Assembly: GCA_963664435.2 (NCBI GenBank)
Contig: CAXXKM010000002.1
Coordinates: 864,001 to 928,000 of the forward strand
Direction of reading: 5' to 3'
Length of the DNA: 64,000 nt
From: Longimicrobiales bacterium
Lineage (GTDB): Bacteria > Gemmatimonadota > Gemmatimonadetes > Longimicrobiales > Gaopeijiaceae
Shown: positions 30,279 to 39,927 of the stretch, piece after piece
How positions within the stretch are numbered: the stretch's first letter is position 1
How the letters are laid out: the number at the start of each line of letters is the position of its first letter
Notes under the pieces: generated by a model
What the model saw: only the letters and a program-made list of their open reading frames with translations
What the model was told of the DNA's origin: nothing
Databases searched by the model: none
Program-made: the position numbers and the translations under genes

Positions 30279-33200
30279 TCAGAACACAAGATCGACTCCG
30301 AGTCTGAGGCCGAGGCCCTGGGGTTGTCCGGGCATGAGCGTTCGCGAGCCTTCGGCACCGATTCTGAGCGTCCGGTTGACGCGGTATCCGGTGCCGAGGA
30401 CCAACGAGCGGGCTTGTGCGCCGGTCGAGAGTCGCGTGTAGCCGTCGAGCGCGCCGCCCGTGCGCGAGTCCTTGAGGGCGTACCCGGCTTCGGCGTCGAG
30501 CCTCCATGGCCGCCCGTCGTGTCCCGCCGCCGGAGCCATGCCCTGGAACGTGCGTCCGTCCATGAGTCCGTGGATGCCGACTTGGTCATGCCCGTGGACG
30601 GGGCTGATCGCGAGCCTGAACCCTTCGCCGCGTGTACCGGGATCGAACGCGAGCCGGAGCGCGGCGCCCCATTCGCGGTGGCCCTCGGACCCGAGGGCGA
30701 GCCTGCCACGCAGGTCGAGGTCGAGTCCGCGGCCGGCATAGCCGATCGAGGCTCCGGTCTCGGCGCCACCGCCCGTGTCGGCGTCGCCCGCGTCGTAGCG
30801 GGCTCCGGCCTGGGTGGCGAGCTTAAGGCCACCGGCGGTCCATGACGCTTCGAGGAGCGCGCGTGCGCGCGATGCCGAGCCCTCGCGGTCGCCTTCTGCG
30901 GCGCGCATGCCGACGGTGAACGCGTCGCCGGTGAGCGCGAGGCCGAACGCGCCGCTCCGCGCGAGCGGCACCCTGACGCCGCCGGAGAGCATGCGGAGGG
31001 TGGCGCCGGAGTCGCCGCCCCGGTTCTCGTCGTGCACGTCCCCGCTTCCGTATCCGGCCATGGCCCAGAGCCCGATCCCCGGCGAGAGCCGGAGGAACAG
31101 GTAGGGGTGCACGCTGTTCATGGCGTGGCCGAGCGAGCCGTCCGCGGAGCGGCGCGCGTAGTCGAGTTCGCCGTCGCTGCGCATGAGGGACACGCCGATG
31201 AGTGCGGAGGATCCGATGCGTGCGTCGGCCCCGACGCTGAGCGCGCGAAGGCCGCCGTCGTATCTGGTGCCGGGCTCGCCGCGGAACGATTGTGCCGAGC
31301 CCTCGGCCCAGAGGCCGAACCGTGTCCGTGTTCCGGCCGCTTCCTGGCCGAGTCCGGTCGCGAACGAGACGCTCGGCAGCAGTCGCCGTGCGGCCTCGCG
31401 CGCGGTGGGGAGTTCGAGCGATTCGGAGCGGCGGGCCATGTCGGCGGGTGAGGACACGCCGAGCGGCAAGCCGGAGAGCGAGGCGAGGGTGCCGGCTGCG
31501 CGGCCCACCCATTCGGCCGCGGATCCGGGCGCGGCGGTGCCGGAGCCGCCCCGCTCCGGCCGCATGACGGCGTCGAAGCGTCCGCCGACCGCTTGCCGCG
31601 CGCCTTCGGCCACGGCGCGCCCGAACACGGCGAGCCCGACATCGAACGCCTCGTCGTGAAGCGCTCCGTCGTCGTGCGCCGCGATGTCGAGGGTGGCGGA
31701 CGCGACCGTTCCCGTGCTCACGGCCTCGGGCAGGGTGCCGAGCCCGAGCGCGAGGCGACCGGGCGCGGCCCCGGCCGGTATGTCGAGCGTGAGCGTGACG
31801 AGCGAATCTCCGGGCTCGAAGACGACCGGATCCGCGACGAGGAGAACACCGGCATCGGCGTCGAACGGCTCTTCGTCCATGCGCACCGCCGTGACGGGCA
31901 CGGCCACGAGCCGGTCGGCAGCCGGGCTGATCCTGAGCGTGATCCCGGTGCCGGGTCCGCCCGCGACCGCCGTGTACGCGGTCTCGACGTACTCGACCGC
32001 AAGCTCGGTCTTGGCATCGTCCCGGGCCACGGCCCGCGCGGCCCTGTCGCCGGCAGTGGCGGCGACGACGATCCGCGTGGTGGCAGGCACGCCGACGGCC
32101 ACCCCAGCGGGCAGGGTGCCGAACCCGACATCGAGGGTGTCCGACGCCGCGAGCCCCGCTACGCTCAGCGCGAGGGTGCTGGTGCCCGCTCCGGCCTGGA
32201 ACGTGACCGTGTGCGTGGCGTCGCCCGCCGCGACCTCGACGGCCAGTGCCGCCGTGGCGGCGGGAGAAAGGAGCACCTCGACATCGGCCGACCCTCCCGG
32301 CGCGGCCGTGTACTCGTCCGCGCCGAACGATACCACCGGCGTGGTCGCGCCGACCACCATGACCGGCGGGCTCTCGGCCCGCTTGCCCGGCCCGTGGCGG
32401 TCCGTGTAGGTGAACACCGCCCGCAGGTACCTGCCCTCGTCCGCTTCGGTCGGCGTGTAGGAGCGCATGTCCGCGCCCTGGACGACCATCGTCCACGCGG
32501 TCCCGTCCGGCGAGCGCTGCCAGGTCCGCATCTTGCCCCGCTCGATCGAGCGGTCCTGGTCCATCAGCGTCGCCGTGAGCCGCACGCCGACCCGGCCCAC
32601 CGCCGCGCTCAGCCTGATCGCGCCCGGATCGTCGTCGTTGGTCACGCGGATCGTGACCCCGGCCGTGTCGGCCAGCGTCCCGTCGCTCGCCTCGACGCTC
32701 ACGGCGTAGAGCGTGTCTCCGCTCTCGTAGTCCAGGGCCGCGCCGCCGGCCACCTTGATCAGCCCCGTGCCGGAGTCGATCTCGAACGGCAGGCCGGCGT
32801 CGGCGTTCACGAACGAGTAGGCCAGATCGTCGCCGTCGGCGTCGGTGGCCGCGATGGGAGCGCCCAAGGCGGTCCCGGCCGCCGAGTTCTCCGGCACCTC
32901 GCGCTCGTACAGCGCGGGGAACGACGGGGCCGCGTTCGCGGCCGCCACCCGCACGGCCGCGCTCTCGGCCCGCTTGTCCGGCCCGTGGCCGTCGGCGTAC
33001 CTGAACACGGCGCGCAGGTACTTGCCGAGGTCGGCCGCCTTCGGCGTGTAGGTCCGGGTGCGCGCGCCCGCGATGTTCGTCCACGCCGCGCCGTCCTCCG
33101 AACGCTGCCAGCGCCGGATCTTGCCCCGCTCGATCGACATGTCCTCGTCCATCAGCGTCGCGGTCAATCGCGCGCCGACCCGCGCCGTCTCGGGACTCAG

Positions 33201-34878
33201 CGCGATCCTGCCCGGATCGTCGGCGTTCGTCACCCGGATCGTCACCGGGACCGTGTCGGCAAGCTCGCCGTCGCTCGCCTCGACCGTCACCGTGAACACC
33301 GTGTCGGCGCTCTCGTAGTTCAGCTTCGCGTCCCCGTCCACCGTGATCTGGCCCGTCCCTTCGGCGATCTCGAACAGCGCCTCGTCCCCGCCCGCAACGA
33401 AGGCGTAATCGAGCGCGGTGCCGTCCGGGTCGCTCGCCGCCACGGGCTCGCCCACCGCCGTGCCGCCCGGCGAGTTCTCCGGCACCGCGCGCTCGTACTT
33501 CACGGGGAACGACGGCGCCGCGTTCGAGGAGGCCACCTCGACCGCCGCGCTCTCGGCCCGCTTGTCCGGCCCGTGGCCGTCGTCGTACGTGAACACCGCG
33601 CGCAGCAGCTTGCCCGCGTCGGCCGCCACCGGCGTGTAGGTCCGGGTCAGTGCCCGCGCGATGTCCGTCCACGTCACTCCACCGTCGTCCGAACGCTGCC
33701 ACTTGCGCCGGATGCTCGGGCGCAGCGAGCCGTCCTCGTCCATCAGCGTCGCGGTCATTTCGTCGCCCACGCGCGCGGTCCCGGGACTCAGCGCGATCTT
33801 GCCGGGATCGTCCGCATTCGTCACGCGGATCGTCACCGAAGCCGTGTCCGCAAGCGTCCCGTCGCTCGCCTCGACCGATACCGTGAACAGCGTGTCGGCG
33901 CTCTCGTAGTTCAGCACGGCGTCCTCGGCGACCGTGATCCCGCCCGTCGCCTCGGCGATCCAGAACGAGACCTCGTCTCCGCCGGACAGCAGGCGATACG
34001 CGAGATCGTCGCCGTCATCGTCGGTCGCCGCCACTGGCTCGCCGACCGCCGTGCCGGCCTCCGAGTTCTCCGCGACCTCGCGCTCGTAGGTGTCCGCGCC
34101 GAACGCCGGCGCGCGGTTGGCCGCCGCCGCCGTCGCACCCTCGCCCGACTCCGACCACGCGCCCGCGCCCTCCGAACTCTCCGCGCGCACCTGCACCTCG
34201 TAGGTGGTGCCCGCGTCGAGTCCCGCGATCGTGTGCGACAGCACCGCCTCCAGCGTCACCGCGTCCGACCACCCGGCATCGCCCCGCGCCCGGTACCGAA
34301 GATGGTAGGCCGTGATCTCCGGCCCCTCGTTCGCGGGTGCCCGCCACGTCGCCGACACCTCCGCGGTTTCTCCCGTCACCGCCGGCGCGTCCGGCCGGCC
34401 CGGCGCGGGAACGTCCGTCACGCGGATCAGCACCTTCGCGGTGTCCGCGAGCGCGCCCTCGCGCGCCTCGATCTTCACCGTGTGCGTCGAGACCCTCTCG
34501 TAGTCCAGCGCCGCGCCACCGGCCACCGTGATCTGGCCCGTCCCGCCGCCGATCTCGAATAGTGCCTCGGAGCCGCCGGGCACGAAGCTGTACGCCAGCG
34601 GCTCCGCGGGGCCGCCGCCGCCCGCCGCCACGGGCTCGCCCACCGCCGTGCCGGCCGCCGCGTTCTCCGCCACCTCGCGCTCGTAGCCGTCCGCGCCGAA
34701 CACGGGCACGAACGCCGTGGCGCCCCTGCCCGACTCCGACCACGCGCCCGCGCCCTCCGAACTCTCCGCCCGCACCCGCACCTCGTAGGCGGTGCCCGCC
34801 TCAAGCCCCGTGATCGTGTGATCGAGCGCCGACCCCGGGATCGCCGCGTCCGACCACGCGCCCTGACCCCGCGCCCGC
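30279..34878 (-). CDS. Adhesin/autotransporter-like protein (FN3, cadherin-like and Ig-like repeats, C-terminal beta-barrel); native 5' end lost, fused to an integrase N-terminus
   Basis: Two FN3-like units (TYEVQVRAESSEGAGAWS), four cadherin-like units (VAENS..GT.VG, LDYE/LNYE), three WQRS.DG...YTP...DGHGP units, C-terminal LGVDLVF; no signal peptide. Confidence 0.82.
32360..34120 (-). repeat. Three ~590-bp tandem coding repeats (cadherin + Ig-like unit)
   Basis: Repeated blocks such as CTCTCGGCCCGCTTG.CCGGCCCGTGGC and GTCCATCAGCGTCGC near 32370, 32960 and 33550. Confidence 0.85.
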
Positions 34879-35193
34879 CGCCGGGTCCTCTCGCCCTTCG
34901 TGGGCGTCACCTCTTCACCGTAGATTTCAAAAAGCCTTCCCAGCGTGAGCGGCTCGGGCTCGGCTTCGGCCTTGCCGTTGGGCTCGTACATCGCGAAGCC
35001 CGCGGCGGCCTCGTCGGCTTGCCGCTTCGCGCGAGCCCAATCGCGGTGTTTCAGCGACCGGCTCAGCCTGCGACCGTTCTCCCGCCACTCGATCTGAAGC
35101 AGGCCGGTCTTCGGATCTGGGAACACCCTCACCCGGTTCCGGCCCCACTCTCCGGCGCTGTAGCTGCGCCGACCTCGTTTCGTGCGTGCCATC
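34879..35193 (-). pseudogene. Truncated second integrase (N-terminal ~105 aa), belonging to element B
   Basis: MMARTKRGRRSYSAGEWGRNRVRVF...VTPTK is nearly identical to the integrase at 51850; catalytic domain absent. Confidence 0.92.
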
Positions 35194-35311
35194 ATTCGAT
35201 TCCTCCGAGTGATGGACTGCACGATCCGCCTATCGGAAAACTCGTTGGGAAGCGGCTTGTTCGCCAGTCGCGGATTGGCTCGCGCTTCGGGGGGCGGACT
35301 CACGGCGCGCT

Positions 35312-37333
35312 TCATATCCGCCCCTTCTCGCGGAGCCGCCAGTAGCCCGTCTCCCTCGGCAGGTAGTGGGGCTTCAGGTAGACGCGGCGGGCCGGAAGCG
35401 ATTTGACCCCGTCGTACGGAAGGCAGATCGCCTGGTAGTTGGCGAGGAGCCCGAACTCGCGCGGCGTGAACACCGGCTCCCTCTGCTGCCGGAACGACTT
35501 GCTCGCGCCGATGGTGCCCCGTCCCCCTCCGGCGCGGCCGGAGAGGAGCGAGAACTCGGGCCTGCCGGTGGTCTCGGTGAACGTGTAGGAGGGCTGCGTC
35601 TTCATGACGGAGCCGCACATCTCCGACGCGATCCGGGCCGACGCCTCGTCGGAGAGCGACAGGAAGATCCGGGTGCGGAGCGTCTGGACGAGCGTGCGCC
35701 ACGCCTCGCCCGAGGGCAGCACGGAGCGGAGCGAGGAGATCGACTGCGTCGCGACGATCGGGATGCAGCGGCACTGCCGGGTGAGTGCGAACGCCTTCTC
35801 GTCGCCCGAGGGGTCGTCCTGTCCGACGGTCGCAAACGCTTGATACTCATCACAGATGAACACGGCGGGCCGCATGTAGCGGCCGGGGCGGCGCGCGGCC
35901 TCGGCCGGACGCCGGAGCAGCGCCTGCATCCAGGCATTCTTGAGAAGCACGCCGATGGCGCGGGCAAGGGCGGGGTTCGCTCCGGCGGGCATGTTCAGGG
36001 CGAGCACCTTGCCTTCGTCGATCAGCTGCGCGAGTGGCGGCAGCCTCCGGCGCAAGCCCGGCACGGGATGGCTGTTGATACTGGTTTCGTTGTTCTCGGC
36101 GGACGGAGTCTCGGTGGGTGGCGGCGGACAGAAGACGCCCGCGACCTCCGGCAGGTCGAAGAGCGATAGGAACACGCTGATGCCCTCGACGATCGAGGTG
36201 CGGAGCTTGGCGTCGAGCTCCAACCAGTCCTTCCGATACCACCGCTCGATGGCCTCGACCTGTTCGGCGACCTCCCGGCCCGCGCCTCCGCCGGCCTCTT
36301 CGGTCTCGTAGGCGACGCCAAGTTCGTCGAGCCGCGATTCCAGCACCGGGTCGAGACGGCACGCCACGTTGCCGGTGCCGGGCACGCGCTCGCACGCCCA
36401 CTCCTCCAGCGCCTGCGGGTGGGCGATCATGTCCTCGTGCGAGATGACGGCGCGCTTCGGACGGAGCCGGTCCGCCAGCTCCCGCGCCTCGCCGATCCTC
36501 CGCCCCAGGAGTTCCGCGTCCACCGTGCAGCGGTAGATGTCCCGGAGCGTGACCCAGCCGCCCGGCAGGATGCGGTGGACCTCGATGATCCACCGCACGA
36601 GGTTCGTGTAGGCCTGTTGCCAGAACGGTTCCCCGCTCTTGCCGAAGAGCTGGTTGATGAGCGACGCGACACCGTAGGCCGCCGAGTAGGAGTCGAGCAG
36701 CGGGTCGTCGAGCGGGTTCCACTGCCACGAGCCGCCAAGCCCGATTTCGAGGTAGTCGTCGCCCCGCCCGGCATCGTCGAGGATGCTCCGAACCTGATGG
36801 CAGAAGTCTCCTTTGACTTCAAGCACGAGCGCGCCCGCGCGCTTGTGGGGATCGTCCGCGCGCCACGAGAGAAGCTGCTTGGCGAACGGGTACATGCAGG
36901 CCGTGGTCTTGCCGGTGCCGACGGCCCCGACCACGAGCACGCCGGTGTAGAGCCCCTTCTCGGGGACGACGAGCCACGAGGGCCGCTCGCTCTCTCTCGC
37001 AACGGTCGGATGGTGCATCTCGCCGATCACCAGCGATGGCGCTTCGTCGTTCGGCGAGGTGGGCCACTTGGGCAGCCTGCCCCTGCGCCGGAACCTGAAG
37101 AGGGGCTGCAACCAGACCCGCCAGACCGAGAGGACGAGCGCGCCCGCGAGGATGACCGCGACGCCGGGCGCCGCGTAGTACCAGATGCGGATGGCGGCGT
37201 GGATGCCCGGATCGTTGTAGGCGATCAGGTCGAGATAGGGGTTGTCGCCGATGGCGGGGAACGGCAGTTCGAGCGCGTGCGCGCCCGCCGTTCCGATGGC
37301 GGCACCGATGACGGCGACCGTCGAGTTCCTCAT
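35312..37333 (-). CDS. VirD4/TraD-like type IV coupling protein
   Basis: N-terminal TM segments, Walker A GAVGTGKT, LEVKGD, WNPL, FW, Walker B FICDEYQ, VATQSISSL; RBS before ATG 37333. Confidence 0.88.
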   Translation of the reverse strand: MRNSTVAVIGAAIGTAGAHALELPFPAIGDNPYLDLIAYNDPGIHAAIRIWYYAAPGVAVILAGALVLSVWRVWLQPLFRFRRRGRLPKWPTSPNDEAPSLVIGEMHHPTVARESERPSWLVVPEKGLYTGVLVVGAVGTGKTTACMYPFAKQLLSWRADDPHKRAGALVLEVKGDFCHQVRSILDDAGRGDDYLEIGLGGSWQWNPLDDPLLDSYSAAYGVASLINQLFGKSGEPFWQQAYTNLVRWIIEVHRILPGGWVTLRDIYRCTVDAELLGRRIGEARELADRLRPKRAVISHEDMIAHPQALEEWACERVPGTGNVACRLDPVLESRLDELGVAYETEEAGGGAGREVAEQVEAIERWYRKDWLELDAKLRTSIVEGISVFLSLFDLPEVAGVFCPPPPTETPSAENNETSINSHPVPGLRRRLPPLAQLIDEGKVLALNMPAGANPALARAIGVLLKNAWMQALLRRPAEAARRPGRYMRPAVFICDEYQAFATVGQDDPSGDEKAFALTRQCRCIPIVATQSISSLRSVLPSGEAWRTLVQTLRTRIFLSLSDEASARIASEMCGSVMKTQPSYTFTETTGRPEFSLLSGRAGGGRGTIGASKSFRQQREPVFTPREFGLLANYQAICLPYDGVKSLPARRVYLKPHYLPRETGYWRLREKGRI

Positions 37334-37364
37334 CGGTGGAACCCCCTTCCCGGAGGGATCGTTG

Positions 37365-37457
37365 GTACGGGAGCGACCCGGCGGGGAGGGCGGCATGGGC
37401 CTGCACATGCCGAACCGCCCCGATGCCGCACCAGGCATCCCAAAGGGCCGGGTCGCT
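37365..37457. repeat. Inverted-repeat target locus of the IS110 (left arm empty, right arm interrupted by the IS)
   Basis: ACGGGAGCGACCCGGC (37367-37382) is the reverse complement of GCCGGGTCGCT (37447-37457) + CCCGT (38812-38816). Confidence 0.88.
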
Positions 37458-37477
37458 TGTCTCTTCCATTCTTGGAG

Positions 37478-37705
37478 ATCCCTGCTTGATTTGCAGGTCC
37501 GGGTCACGGGGATGGCCCGGTGTGCTGGATGCCCGCAGAGGCGAGCGGAGCGAGCCGGAGCGGGCATCCAGCACAGACGGTGGTCGGGCCGTCGGGTCGC
37601 TGGCCGCAAGGGCCGTACGGGAGTTTGGTCGCCACCGTCTTTCCCACGTCCTGAATGGATACTTGAGCATCGAGGCTCGCACGACAAGCACAGGAGAAAG
37701 GGAAA
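37478..37705 (+). ncRNA. Predicted bridge RNA (5' hairpins, target-binding loop 37575-37640, donor-binding loop 37641-37704)
   Basis: Guides CGGGTCGCT (37593-37601), GTACGGGAG (37615-37623), ATGGATACT (37655-37663) and GACAAG (37683-37688) match the flanks and ends; closing stems AGACGGTGG/CCACCGTCT and TCCTG/CAGGA. Transcript ends are approximate. Confidence 0.88.
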
Positions 37706-37709
37706 GCAC

Positions 37710-38711
37710 ATGAGCACCAGCCGTCGCACCGTCGGGATCGACATCTCCAAGGACTGGCTCGACGCCTTCGCGGCGCCCGAGGGGAGAGCGTCCCGGTTCT
37801 CGAACGACAGGGCCGGCTTCCGGAAACTGATCGCTTGGATCGGCTCCGGGATCGACCGGATCGCGTACGAACCCTCCGGAGCCTTCCACCGCGACCTCGA
37901 GGACACCCTCCTGAAGGCCGGACTCCCCATGTATGCGATCAACCCCTTCCAAGTCCGGTCCTTCGCCCGGTCCCTCGGCCAGCGAGCCAAGACCGATGCC
38001 GTGGACGCCCGGATGCTGGCCATCATGGCGTCGGCCATCGAAGACCTACGCCCGGCGCAGGCGAAGTCCGAGGGGCAGCGCGACCTTGCCGAGCTCCAGC
38101 AGATCCGCGACGCGCTGCGCAAGGACCGGACCGCCACCTCCAACCGCGGCAGGCACTTGCGCACTCCCGTGGGCAAGCGGGTCACCAGGCAGAGGCTGAG
38201 GCAGATCGAGCGCCAGCTGAAGCTCATCGACGCAGAGATCCGGCAACGGGTGGAGGAGGAGAAGGCGCTGGAGCGCCGGGCCGAGATCCTGACCTCGATC
38301 CCGGGCATCTCGGACATCACCGCCGCGGGACTGATCGTCCACTTGCCGGAGCTCGGCACCCTCACCGGCCCCCGCGCCGCCAGCCTCGCCGGACTGGCCC
38401 CGGTCACCCGGGAGTCCGGACACTGGAAGGGACGCAGCTTCATCCAGGGCGGCAGGCGCCGGGTGCGCCAGTTGCTGTACATGCCCGCAGTGGCTGCGGT
38501 CCAGCACAATCCCGACCTCGGGCGCAAGTACGAAGCGCTCGTGGCTCGGGGCAAGCCGCCCAAGGTCGCCCTGACGGCCGTGATGCGGAAGCTCCTCATC
38601 CTCGCCAACGCCCTGGTGCAGCAGGACCGCACTTGGACGGCGCACCCGCCGCGGGAATACTCCTGCCCGGCCTTCCCGACGCCCAGCCCGGCGGGGAGCG
38701 TTCACGGATGA
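37710..38711 (+). CDS. IS110 family recombinase/transposase (333 aa)
   Basis: GIDISKD, YEPSG, AKTDAVDA (DEDD), SIPGI, GLAP..RESG, A.MRKL. Confidence 0.96.
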   Translation: MSTSRRTVGIDISKDWLDAFAAPEGRASRFSNDRAGFRKLIAWIGSGIDRIAYEPSGAFHRDLEDTLLKAGLPMYAINPFQVRSFARSLGQRAKTDAVDARMLAIMASAIEDLRPAQAKSEGQRDLAELQQIRDALRKDRTATSNRGRHLRTPVGKRVTRQRLRQIERQLKLIDAEIRQRVEEEKALERRAEILTSIPGISDITAAGLIVHLPELGTLTGPRAASLAGLAPVTRESGHWKGRSFIQGGRRRVRQLLYMPAVAAVQHNPDLGRKYEALVARGKPPKVALTAVMRKLLILANALVQQDRTWTAHPPREYSCPAFPTPSPAGSVHG

Positions 38712-38797
38712 TCGAGCCGGGCAAGAACGGGCACCGCAACGGAAGCATCGCGAGGGGCGCTGCGAGACACGTCGCTCCAAGAAAATCGGGCATCCGC

Positions 38798-38803
38798 TTG
38801 ACA
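38798..38803 (+). promoter_or_regulatory. -35 box TTGACA; forms a 17-bp-spaced promoter with CATTCT (37467-37472) only in the circular IS
   Basis: TTGACA + TGGATACT (8 nt) + TGTCTCTTC (9 nt) + CATTCT. Confidence 0.7.
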
Positions 38804-38991
38804 TGGATACTCCCGTCCACGGCCCGGAGAGGCGGATCGGCACCGGCAATCCGCAGGCCGTGGCCCAACCCCAAGCCGTTCGGCGACTTGCGGAACCCTC
38901 GTTCCGCACAACACGGCCGCATTTCGCTGCACAAGCACCCCGATGTCGTTTTCACACCTCCGGATCGGCAACGGGCTCCCCCGAACGGCAC

Positions 38992-39927
38992 TCAAATCCG
39001 GACTCCGGAAAGATGGCTCGAACGCCATACCGAATGCCCATCGATCGTGCCTTCGGGACGAGCCGACCGGAGCAGGTCCCGCATCTCGACGAGGCGGCGA
39101 AGGCAGCCGTTGAGACCGCCCAGTTCCTCGACCGTCGCGTCGTCCATGCCCCGGATGGCGTTCTCGACCCGTGCGGCCTCGCGCCGGGCCGCCGCGACGG
39201 TCCCGGGCGGATGCACGGGACGTGGGGCCGTGTCCGCATTGGTCCAGTTCCCGAGGATCGTCCGCGCCCGGTCAAGCGGTCTCCGGGCGCACGCGACCCC
39301 GACGGCCCCGACCGACAAGCCATCCTCCCTCAGCGCCTCCCAGAGCCTCTGGTGCCGGTCCCGCCACGAATGGAGCGCGGTCGAGGTGTCGTAGCCGGGA
39401 TCGGCGTGGACGAACACGGCGCGGCGGGAGTCCAGCGCCACGGGCATCCCGCGCGGGAAGTAGCGCCGCGCGCCGCCAGCCGCTCCCCGGTAGACCCGGA
39501 CGGGCAGCAGGGAGCGGTGGATGCCGAGCGCCTCGAACGCGCTCACCTTCTCCGACTCGGTCGGGAGCCAGGGCAGGTCCGGATGCTCGATCACGTAGTC
39601 GAAAGAGAGCAGGCGGCGAACGACCACCTCGGTCGAAGTGGTCCTGCGGTGGCGGATATCCTCGGCACCGAGCGCCCGGTAGACCCCGCGCGCGCAGACC
39701 CGGCAGACCTTCAGGCCCCCGACCGTCTCCTCGGTCAGCAGCCTTCGCTCCGTCAGAGCCTGAATGAGCCGGAGCACCTTGAAGCGGCTGGCCCCGAGCC
39801 AGTCCGAAAGCTGCGAGCGGGTGAACACGCCGCCGTGCAGGCTCGCCAGCGCGATCCACTCGGCGCGGCGGCCCGTCAGGCCGAAGGGCTCAAGCGCCCG
39901 TTCGCGTCCCTTCAGGTGGGCGATCAT
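38992..39927 (-). CDS. Hypothetical wHTH-containing protein, possible replication/relaxation initiator of element B
   Basis: RBS GAGGGG, ATG 39927; N-terminal wHTH-like segment; WLPTE.EK and RYFP..MPVA; upstream of the T4CP gene. Confidence 0.6.
   Translation of the reverse strand: MIAHLKGRERALEPFGLTGRRAEWIALASLHGGVFTRSQLSDWLGASRFKVLRLIQALTERRLLTEETVGGLKVCRVCARGVYRALGAEDIRHRRTTSTEVVVRRLLSFDYVIEHPDLPWLPTESEKVSAFEALGIHRSLLPVRVYRGAAGGARRYFPRGMPVALDSRRAVFVHADPGYDTSTALHSWRDRHQRLWEALREDGLSVGAVGVACARRPLDRARTILGNWTNADTAPRPVHPPGTVAAARREAARVENAIRGMDDATVEELGGLNGCLRRLVEMRDLLRSARPEGTIDGHSVWRSSHLSGVRI

Follow-up and report, generated by a model that had tools for sequence, protein, structure and literature searches.

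An IS110-group insertion sequence with a predicted bridge RNA and readable guides in a Longimicrobiales genome

Introduction

Bridge recombinases are under development as programmable tools for the insertion, inversion and deletion of DNA. In the closest described system, IS621 of Escherichia coli, the guide RNA is encoded in the left end of the element and consists, in this order, of a 5' stem-loop, a stem-loop that binds the target and one that binds the donor; the published consensus of bridge RNAs contains this 5' stem-loop, and a promoter reconstituted at the junction of the joined ends has been reported for IS621 and its relatives (PMC11208160). Since bridge RNAs are predicted in 85.7% of the catalogued IS110-group elements (PMC11208160), the discovery of another bridge-RNA element is in itself expected. 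Here, we describe one in a stretch of 64,000 nt (the window, in which position 1 is the first letter) from a Longimicrobiales bacterium of the Gemmatimonadota (GCA_963664435.2, contig CAXXKM010000002.1, positions 864,001 to 928,000, forward strand). The window sits on contig C2 of a 4.5-Mb assembly with 68% G+C, and the element, an IS110-family insertion sequence of 1354 bp, spans 37458-38811 on the plus strand.

It is very probable that we see here an intact insertion sequence of the IS110 group which was active in recent times and works with a bridge RNA. What carries this reading is the anatomy of the element, the match of its guides with ends and flanks, the covariation of guides and flanks in relatives, covariation in the RNA structure and three identical copies in one genome. 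The element appears to be a genuine bridge-RNA element of the known IS110 kind and is probably active. A first-pass annotation, made from the letters of the window, had proposed a complete new ortholog with a fully readable bridge RNA; at the sequence level this is supported, as all the sequence features that mark a bridge-RNA element of the IS110 group are present, while the kind itself is already known and RNA expression and recombination are presumed.

The locus, with its predicted RNA and promoter, resembles IS621 (PMC11208160; PMC11208158) in the two protein domains and the aligned catalytic residues, in an RNA located in the left end with the same order of stem-loops, in guide polarity, in a CT core within all four pairings, in 9-nt left guides, in a promoter split between a -35 in the right end and a -10 in the left end, and in targets within repeated palindromic DNA. 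It differs in a longer right target guide, which reaches 9 nt at one copy (c2, below) with a signal across the family to about +3 to +5 past the core, whereas the analysis of natural IS621 sites used four bases for this guide (PMC11208160). The right donor guide is plainly the core plus four nucleotides here, whereas IS621 is described with discontiguous pairing. Further, the non-coding ends total 352 bp against 298 bp, and the predicted RNA, at about 225 nt, is longer than the 177-nt RNA of IS621 and carries extra 5' hairpins of about 40 nt. IS621 inserts into enterobacterial repetitive extragenic palindromic (REP) elements, whereas the target motif of the present element lies upstream of coupling-protein genes. 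The element comes from a Longimicrobiales bacterium that has not been cultured and is known from sequence alone.

The RNA of the IS1111 group is also called seekRNA. This group has the same recombinase family and the same RNA-guided logic, but long right ends, subterminal inverted repeats of 7-17 bp and an RNA downstream of the gene (PMC11208160), in contrast to the 100-nt right end found here. Because the left end has 252 nt, the right end 100 nt and the RNA lies upstream of the gene, the element belongs to the IS110 and not to the IS1111 group. The comparison with ISCro4 (PDB 9t56) covers the protein only, which matches over its full length (E 3.5e-30). ISPpu10 of Pseudomonas putida (10.64898/2026.03.19.712850) likewise inserts into copies of one conserved intergenic sequence able to fold, and there too the match is guided by the bridge RNA; here, by contrast, two arms about 70 bp apart each carry a target, and the repeat may have a role in recognition. 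Literature on IS110 in Gemmatimonad- hosts, covered at the level of titles and the beginnings of abstracts and without ISfinder or ortholog tables, yielded no report that appears to concern such an element, which is no proof that the family is undescribed.

The element and its guides

The genome holds three identical copies of the element, c1 (in the window), c2 and c3. The parts from which the guides are read are as follows, all on the plus strand.

37449..37457, left target (7 nt) and CT core at the left junction, identical in c2 and c3
37458..38811, the element, 1354 bp; three copies identical throughout, and a contig that skips 1354
37458..37461, right donor arm TGTC, the bases that open the left end; partner of the right donor guide
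37593..37601, left target guide, in the sense of left flank and core
37615..37623, right target guide, the complement of core and right flank; 9/9 at c2, 7/9 at c1
37655..37663, left donor guide, same sense as right end plus core; ATGGATAC kept in 34/34 distinct left ends
37683..37688, right donor guide, the complement of the core and the 4 nt that open the left end
37710..38711, gene of the recombinase (333 aa and a stop codon); two Pfam domains, alignments with IS621 and ISCro4
38803..38811, left donor arm (last 7 nt of the element) and CT core
38812..38818, right target; agrees with the guide over the first 5 nt, last 2 nt differ at c1

Central to the argument are four strings in the left non-coding end, each confirmed by direct reading of 37200-39100 where the first-pass annotation had placed it. 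The string CGGGTCGCT at 37593-37601 has the same letters as the left flank at 37449-37457, and ATGGATACT at 37655-37663 the same letters as the right end at 38803-38811, while GACAAG (37683-37688) complements CTTGTC (37456-37461). The remaining string, GTACGGGAG at 37615-37623, has the reverse complement CTCCCGTAC, which agrees at 7 of 9 positions with the core and right flank (38810-38816, CTCCCGT); the flank continues with CC where the guide predicts AC. The claim that all four guides match is thus exact for three, and the right target guide fits at 7/9 in c1 and at 9/9 in the identical copy c2. In 200,000 mononucleotide shuffles of 37462-37709, the four strings had frequencies of 0.0027, 0.038, 0.00035 and 0.053 (product 1.8e-9), and all four at once were carried by none of the 200,000.

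The polarity of the strings is that of IS621: both left guides read like the top strand, both right guides are its complement, and each of the four includes the core. The second loop would pair in this way with the joined right and left ends, which form the donor, over 9 nt and 6 nt. For IS621, two bases on the 3' side of the right guides are described that, once strands have been exchanged, pair with position 7 of the other DNA (PMC11208158). Here, the right target guide is followed by U, with A at donor position 7, and the right donor guide by C, with G at target position 7 (position -1) in 57/57 insertion sites of the family; both could pair, and both predicted positions would fit the published scheme.

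The CT core is present at both junctions (37456-37457 and 38810-38811), and the element boundary is ambiguous by these 2 nt. Terminal inverted repeats are lacking, and empty paralogous sites carry a single CT core, as in the IS110 group. The left non-coding end of 252 nt (37458-37709) is longer than the right one of 100 nt (38712-38811), and it is the left end that encodes the predicted RNA.

The recombinase passes the curated cut-offs of PF01548 (E 7.9e-22, residues 8-148) and PF02371 (E 3.5e-18, residues 191-274). Its residues 7-304 align with the IS621 transposase (8wt6) at E 1.3e-31, and residues 6-304 give the ISCro4 alignment cited above. Residues D11, E54, D96, D99 and S236 (G237) stand opposite D13, E62, D104, D107 and S243 (G244) of IS621 chain 8wt6_A; the catalytic residues of IS621 are given as D11, E60, D102, D105 and S241 in PMC11208158, and we take the chain numbering to be that of the paper plus two. 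Ahead of the true start, no stop codon interrupts the recombinase frame over 156 codons (37242-37709), which take in the entire RNA region, and gene callers may over-extend the gene into it. The 489-aa in-frame reading (37242-38711) was rejected as the gene, as relatives and IS621 start at the ATG at 37710. In annotation, the 250 bp upstream of such a 'transposase' would be a functional RNA gene and not a spacer.

Copies and target sites in the same genome

A DNA search of the genome returned 11 matches: the three copies at 100%, two diverged ones (c4 at 88% and c5 at 87%) and fragments. The copies c1, c2 (C3:1259619-1260972) and c3 (C2:851557-852910) are identical over all 1354 bp and have intact open reading frames (ORFs). 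The site of c1 reads CGGGTCG-CT-CCCGTCC and that of c2 CGGGTCG-CT-CCCGTAC, which both target guides fit over 9 and 9 nt; at c3 (CGGGTCG-CT-CCCCGTC) the left match is complete and the right one is 3/6. Empty paralogous sites read CGGGTCG-CT-CCCGTAC and ...CCCGTCC.

Around c1 and c2 the flanking sequences are paralogues with 92% and 88% identity, and each locus holds the target twice, as an inverted repeat with about 70 bp between the arms, in the interval from the coupling-protein gene to the following gene. In the window one arm is empty and the other filled, and the c2 locus (C3:1259526) has the opposite arrangement.

37365..37380, minus strand, empty intact copy of the guide-predicted 16-nt target in the other arm of the inverted repeat; only exact match in the genome

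The guide-predicted 16-mer occurs exactly once in the 4.5-Mb genome, at this place, against 0.014 expected, and of the two sites with one mismatch one is the empty arm of the c2 locus. As identical elements occupy different arms of diverged paralogous modules, they represent separate and recent insertions.

Within the genome, c5 offers a test of covariation. Its right target guide carries two changes relative to c1 and predicts CTCCCAGAC (CTCCCAG); its flank reads CTCCCAGCC (likewise CTCCCAG), and the empty partner arm reads CTCCCAGAC. In c5, guide and target have changed together.

An assembled DNA contig (run X1) links 37455 to 38810, a jump of exactly 1354 with 2 nt in common. Excision as the source of this joint is not evidenced, and a paralogous empty site may be its origin. 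As separate observations, a one-mismatch copy of the predicted 16-nt target lies at C3:14150, about 2.5 kb from c4 (C3:10333-11688), and c1 and c3 stand in opposite orientation about 48.5 kb apart on the same contig, where recombination between them could invert the segment.

Guides and flanks across relatives

A scan for relatives, with one genome per species, found 103 stretches encoding one, of which 80, representing 74 loci, were kept. Complete elements with at least 40 nt on both sides were present at 55 loci, and 19 truncated loci were excluded; together with the five copies of this genome, the data set comprises 60 copies at 57 distinct insertion sites. The relatives come nearly all from metagenome-assembled genomes of Longimicrobiales or other Gemmatimonadota, some of them labelled Candidatus Palauibacter. 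Across the set, the target loop has 13 forms on its 5' strand and 19 on its 3' strand in 23 combinations, while the donor loop and the element ends hardly vary.

It is in this set that the guides can be compared with the flanks they are expected to read. The left guide matches its own flank at a mean of 6.14 of 7 positions, against 4.85 +/- 0.16 in 2000 re-pairings over the 57 sites (maximum 5.44), and the right guide at 3.46 of 6, against 2.21 +/- 0.15 (maximum 2.72 in as many re-pairings). In a separate run, positions -2, -4, -6, -7, +1, +2 and +3 beat every one of 1000 permutations; +4 and +5 were above the permuted mean and inside the permuted range, and the invariant left positions are uninformative. 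The left match reaches at least 6/7 at 47 of the 57 sites, and the right match at least 4/6 at 30 and 3/6 at nine. Guide-target covariation in other copies, which the first-pass annotation had named as a check, is therefore present, with the exceptions weighed below. The combination of a strong left arm and a weaker right arm resembles the half-match insertions reported for IS621 in 10.64898/2026.08.31.748434. On the donor side, four relatives (L052, L053, L054 and L056) have the left end TGTTTC in place of TGTCTC together with the guide AACAAG in place of GACAAG.

Whether a copy might be guided in trans by another one in its genome was examined where at least two target-loop variants are present (39 sites). 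A better fit to another resident loop was seen at 8 of the 39, against 5.3 +/- 1.8 (maximum 11) with loops from foreign genomes, which gives no support for it. The single suggestive cases are L044 with the L038 loop, L072 with that of L040 and c4 with that of c5.

Short tandem arrays lie at the insertion sites of L035, L042, L043, L046, L051 and L072. They are of the type (CTTG)n, and in L051 there are four additional units of TGCTGGCT, which is made up of the left target's end and the core. Such arrays could be footprints of repeated recombination at the core or of replication slippage. Six copies (L034, L041, L058, L061, L069 and L085), with proteins 82-88% identical, are on contigs binned as Gammaproteobacteria, Acidobacteria or Bryobacterales; at least three of these contigs are short (2.6-3.9 kb), two of them with very high coverage. 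For these copies, a repeat placed in the wrong bin and a transfer between phyla are equally likely explanations.

Structure of the predicted RNA

The minimum-energy fold of 37458-37712 has -124.5 kcal/mol, against -103.6 +/- 4.8 in 200 shuffles (z = -4.4), none of which was as good. From 5' to 3' it consists of small hairpins, a 16-bp stem-loop, the stem-loop with the target strings and that with the donor strings. Its parts are listed below, all on the plus strand.

37481..37520, two small 5' hairpins (37481-37497 and 37499-37520), extra 5' part of the predicted RNA; seen in the fold and conserved in 34 left ends
37521..37575, 5' stem-loop with 16-bp stem and conserved 23-nt loop; 6/15 pairs with changes on both sides
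37576..37640, target-binding stem-loop with internal loop; helix 7 with 2 pairs changed on both sides
37649..37695, donor-binding stem-loop with internal loop; seen in the fold, helices invariant, 3' strand overlapping the AGGAG before the start codon

The first two strings lie on opposite strands of one internal loop and the last two likewise in a second, so that the two guide-bearing loops proposed earlier are borne out by the fold, as is the perfect 16-bp stem (37521-37536 / 37560-37575). The three-part fold, the guide polarity and the CT at both junctions also bear out an IS621-type bridge-RNA architecture with a CT core. On the 5' part, the earlier description needs revision. In place of two small hairpins, the fold gives three before the 16-bp stem; the first (about 37464-37477) overlaps the predicted -10 box and is therefore probably upstream of the RNA start. 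Likewise, the 'enlarged 5' region' is new in part only: the extra portion is the roughly 40 nt of small hairpins at 37481-37520, whereas the 16-bp stem is the likely counterpart of the published 5' stem-loop.

Covariation in the structure was assessed in alignment A1 of 34 distinct left ends, with pairing partners slid by 1-3 columns as the control. In the consensus structure, 99.8% of cells are paired, against 40-42% with slid partners. Eight pairs have changed on both sides, against 0-1 with slid partners and 2.5 +/- 1.2 in shuffles, none of 500 of which reaches eight; the 16-bp stem accounts for six of these pairs and the target-loop stem for the other two. At least three lineages contribute such double changes, namely L027, L057 and the group of c1, L012 and L083. 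Both the donor-loop helices and the small 5' hairpins fit the predicted fold, with double changes in neither.

Three variations in the left end were noted in passing. L022 (1238-1503) has a 9-nt duplication (GCGAGCGTA) within the otherwise invariant loop of the 5' stem-loop. At A1 columns 154-155 and 220-221, the left target and left donor guides end in CA in most relatives though the DNA core is CT, and both end in CT in the window copy. Relative to the hairpin, the left target guide is one base more distant in c5, L026, L057 and L067.

Predicted junction promoter and proposed mechanism

When right end and left end are joined in silico, the highest-ranking -35/-10 pair spans the junction in each of the 60 copies, with a spacer of 17-18 nt. 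The promoter model is of the sigma-70 type, whose consensus may not be that of the host phylum, and the boxes are predictions. Those of the window, on the plus strand, are as follows.

38798..38803, predicted -35 TTGACA in the right end, 17 nt from the -10 after joining of the ends
37467..37472, predicted -10 CATTCT of a promoter that would arise only at the circle junction

Three groups of copies can be distinguished by their predicted boxes.

18 copies including the window: -35 TTGACA, spacer 17, -10 CATTCT
31 copies: -35 TTGTGA or TTGCGA, spacer 17, -10 CATAAT
11 copies: -35 TTGACA, spacer 18, -10 AATCAT or CATCAT

In the group of 31 copies, the -35 is at 16 nt from the right end as against 14 nt and the -10 is 2 nt nearer the left end, with the 17-nt spacing preserved. 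A start a few bases after 37472 would leave the first small hairpin outside the RNA, which would therefore have about 225 nt; the extra length over the 177-nt IS621 RNA presumably corresponds to the two hairpins at 37481-37520.

On the pattern of IS621, excision would give a circle in which the right end is joined to the left end at the CT core. The circle junction would set TTGACA of the right end 17 nt from CATTCT of the left end and so form a promoter, from which a structured RNA of about 225 nt would be transcribed out of the left end, probably with the recombinase mRNA behind it. The first internal loop of this RNA would pair with the chromosomal site CGGGTCG-CT-CCCGTAC and the second with the joined ends ATGGATA-CT-TGTC, and the DEDD/Ser recombinase would swap strands at the CT core. 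That the RNA is produced, bound by the protein and directs recombination, we infer from this analogy.

Weighing the alternatives

Several observations weigh against a bridge-RNA element of this kind or limit how far it is supported. The guides track their own flanks over the 57 sites with the exceptions of c4, of the left arm of L038 and of the right arm at 18 sites. The right match is at most 2/6 at those 18 of 57, and the left match falls below 6/7 at 10 of 57, with just 2/7 at L038. Of the sites with poor left matches, L035, L042 and L043 sit in short CTTG repeats beside the expected site, with the register shifted; this is not so for L038 and c4. The guides of c4 predict ...TAGGCTGG-CT-CCCGAC and its actual site is GATCGTCG-CT-CTCAGGC, a match of 3/7 on the left and 2/6 on the right; an off-target or half-match insertion, guidance in trans or a later change of the loop are possible causes. 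Because the donor loop and donor ends hardly vary, the donor pairing rests on identity and one co-change, and L044 has a change in the donor guide without one in the end. Compensatory changes are absent from the donor-loop helices and the small 5' hairpins, though their sequence is conserved, and those found elsewhere come from few lineages because most relatives are 85-99% identical. A scan of 37000-39300 with Rfam 15 (E up to 10) brought no family to threshold, it being not established that Rfam includes a bridge-RNA family; of eight weak hits the best had E 0.54, and the best two mirror just the 16-bp stem. Among 24 public runs, taken as assembled contigs, which are uninformative on expression, RNA ends and circles, no contig joins the right end to the left end, and RNA-library contigs that touch the element are 90-95% alike and continue into other sequence, and so derive from relatives.

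The internal copies of ends and flanks might act as DNA, as subterminal protein-binding repeats or captured target, with the protein alone selecting the site and no guide RNA. The near invariance of the donor-side strings is what protein-binding repeats would show, and no RNA is seen in the assembled public contigs. This explanation is nonetheless very improbable: the target-side strings match sequence outside the element and change along with it over 23 guide combinations, and they lie in the internal loops of a structure with compensatory changes. One arm of each loop has the sense of the DNA and the other is complementary to it, which is the polarity of the two-strand RNA pairing of IS621 and unexpected for repeats; moreover, by structural family the protein is closely related to enzymes with a demonstrated need for the RNA. 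Alternatively, the site might be set mainly by the structure of the DNA, in the form of the hairpin or inverted repeat found upstream of coupling-protein genes, to which the guides would add a partial left match (a 'half-match' or dual-match). The poor right match at the 18 sites, the location of targets within palindromic or inverted-repeat elements, and reports on half-match insertion by IS621 (10.64898/2026.08.31.748434) and on a target stem-loop as a second determinant in ISPpu10 (10.64898/2026.03.19.712850) speak for such a role. However, the right positions +1 to +3 still exceed 1000/1000 permutations, and DNA structure would refine the bridge-RNA mechanism and not replace it; as the main determinant we consider it improbable.

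It could also be asked whether the element is a well-preserved relic with readable guides, whose copies multiplied when the mobile modules around them were duplicated and did so without transposition, since the c1 and c2 loci are paralogous modules with flanks 92% and 88% identical. This we regard as extremely improbable, as the three copies are 100% identical where the flanking modules are just 88-92%, all ORFs are intact, and c1 and c2 lie in opposite repeat arms and c3 in a third context, which indicates separate insertions after the modules diverged. The preferred reading thus remains that of a recently active element guided by a bridge RNA. A bolder extension of it is a tentative and rather doubtful proposal, namely that the clade is a natural reprogramming series in which one recombinase (85-99% identical) and one donor with its donor loop are combined with at least 23 target loops. 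To these it adds the long right target guide, an extra conserved 5' module (two hairpins and the 23-nt loop) and a donor-loop stem pairing with ribosome-binding purines; RNA folding and translation might then be coupled in cis, and the scaffold could exceed IS621 in specificity.

Significance

The element adds an ortholog from a phylum without cultured hosts, and every one of its guides is readable from the genome. The 57 natural sites and 23 guide combinations on a nearly constant protein and donor form a ready data set, in which it would be important to ask what length of right guide is needed, how frequent half-matches are in nature and whether the extra 5' RNA has any role. More modest points are the right target guide capable of 9 nt, the conserved extra 5' RNA of about 40 nt, a donor-loop stem over the ribosome-binding purines and a family with many natural target-loop variants on one scaffold. 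Our knowledge of how such elements work is unchanged by this one.

Genomic context

The left neighbour is a gene at 35315-37333 on the minus strand with the coupling-protein domains PF12696 and PF10412 (both E 4.4e-07). Its start codon is 32 bp from the empty target arm, and five paralogues with 81-92% identity occur elsewhere in the genome. The target motif consists of GGGTCGCTCCC..., GCGATCCC, a short hairpin, GGGAAGG and ATG, in that order, and the same motif is found upstream of homologous genes in the genome and in the right flanks of several relatives' insertions. Given this recurrence, the element lands in a conserved intergenic motif of conjugative-element-like modules, comparable to the use of REP elements by IS621, and its natural target is the conserved inverted-repeat motif upstream of a type IV coupling-protein gene in paralogous modules of this kind.

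Just downstream of the coupling-protein gene (about 34868-35292), a segment of 350-420 bp recurs at 23 further places in the genome with 78-89% identity and is probably the conserved part of a multi-copy mobile module. Left of the same gene, at about 32346-34878, internal repeats of about 470-1190 bp with 71-78% identity lie in long minus-strand frames, which suggests a large protein with repeated domains.

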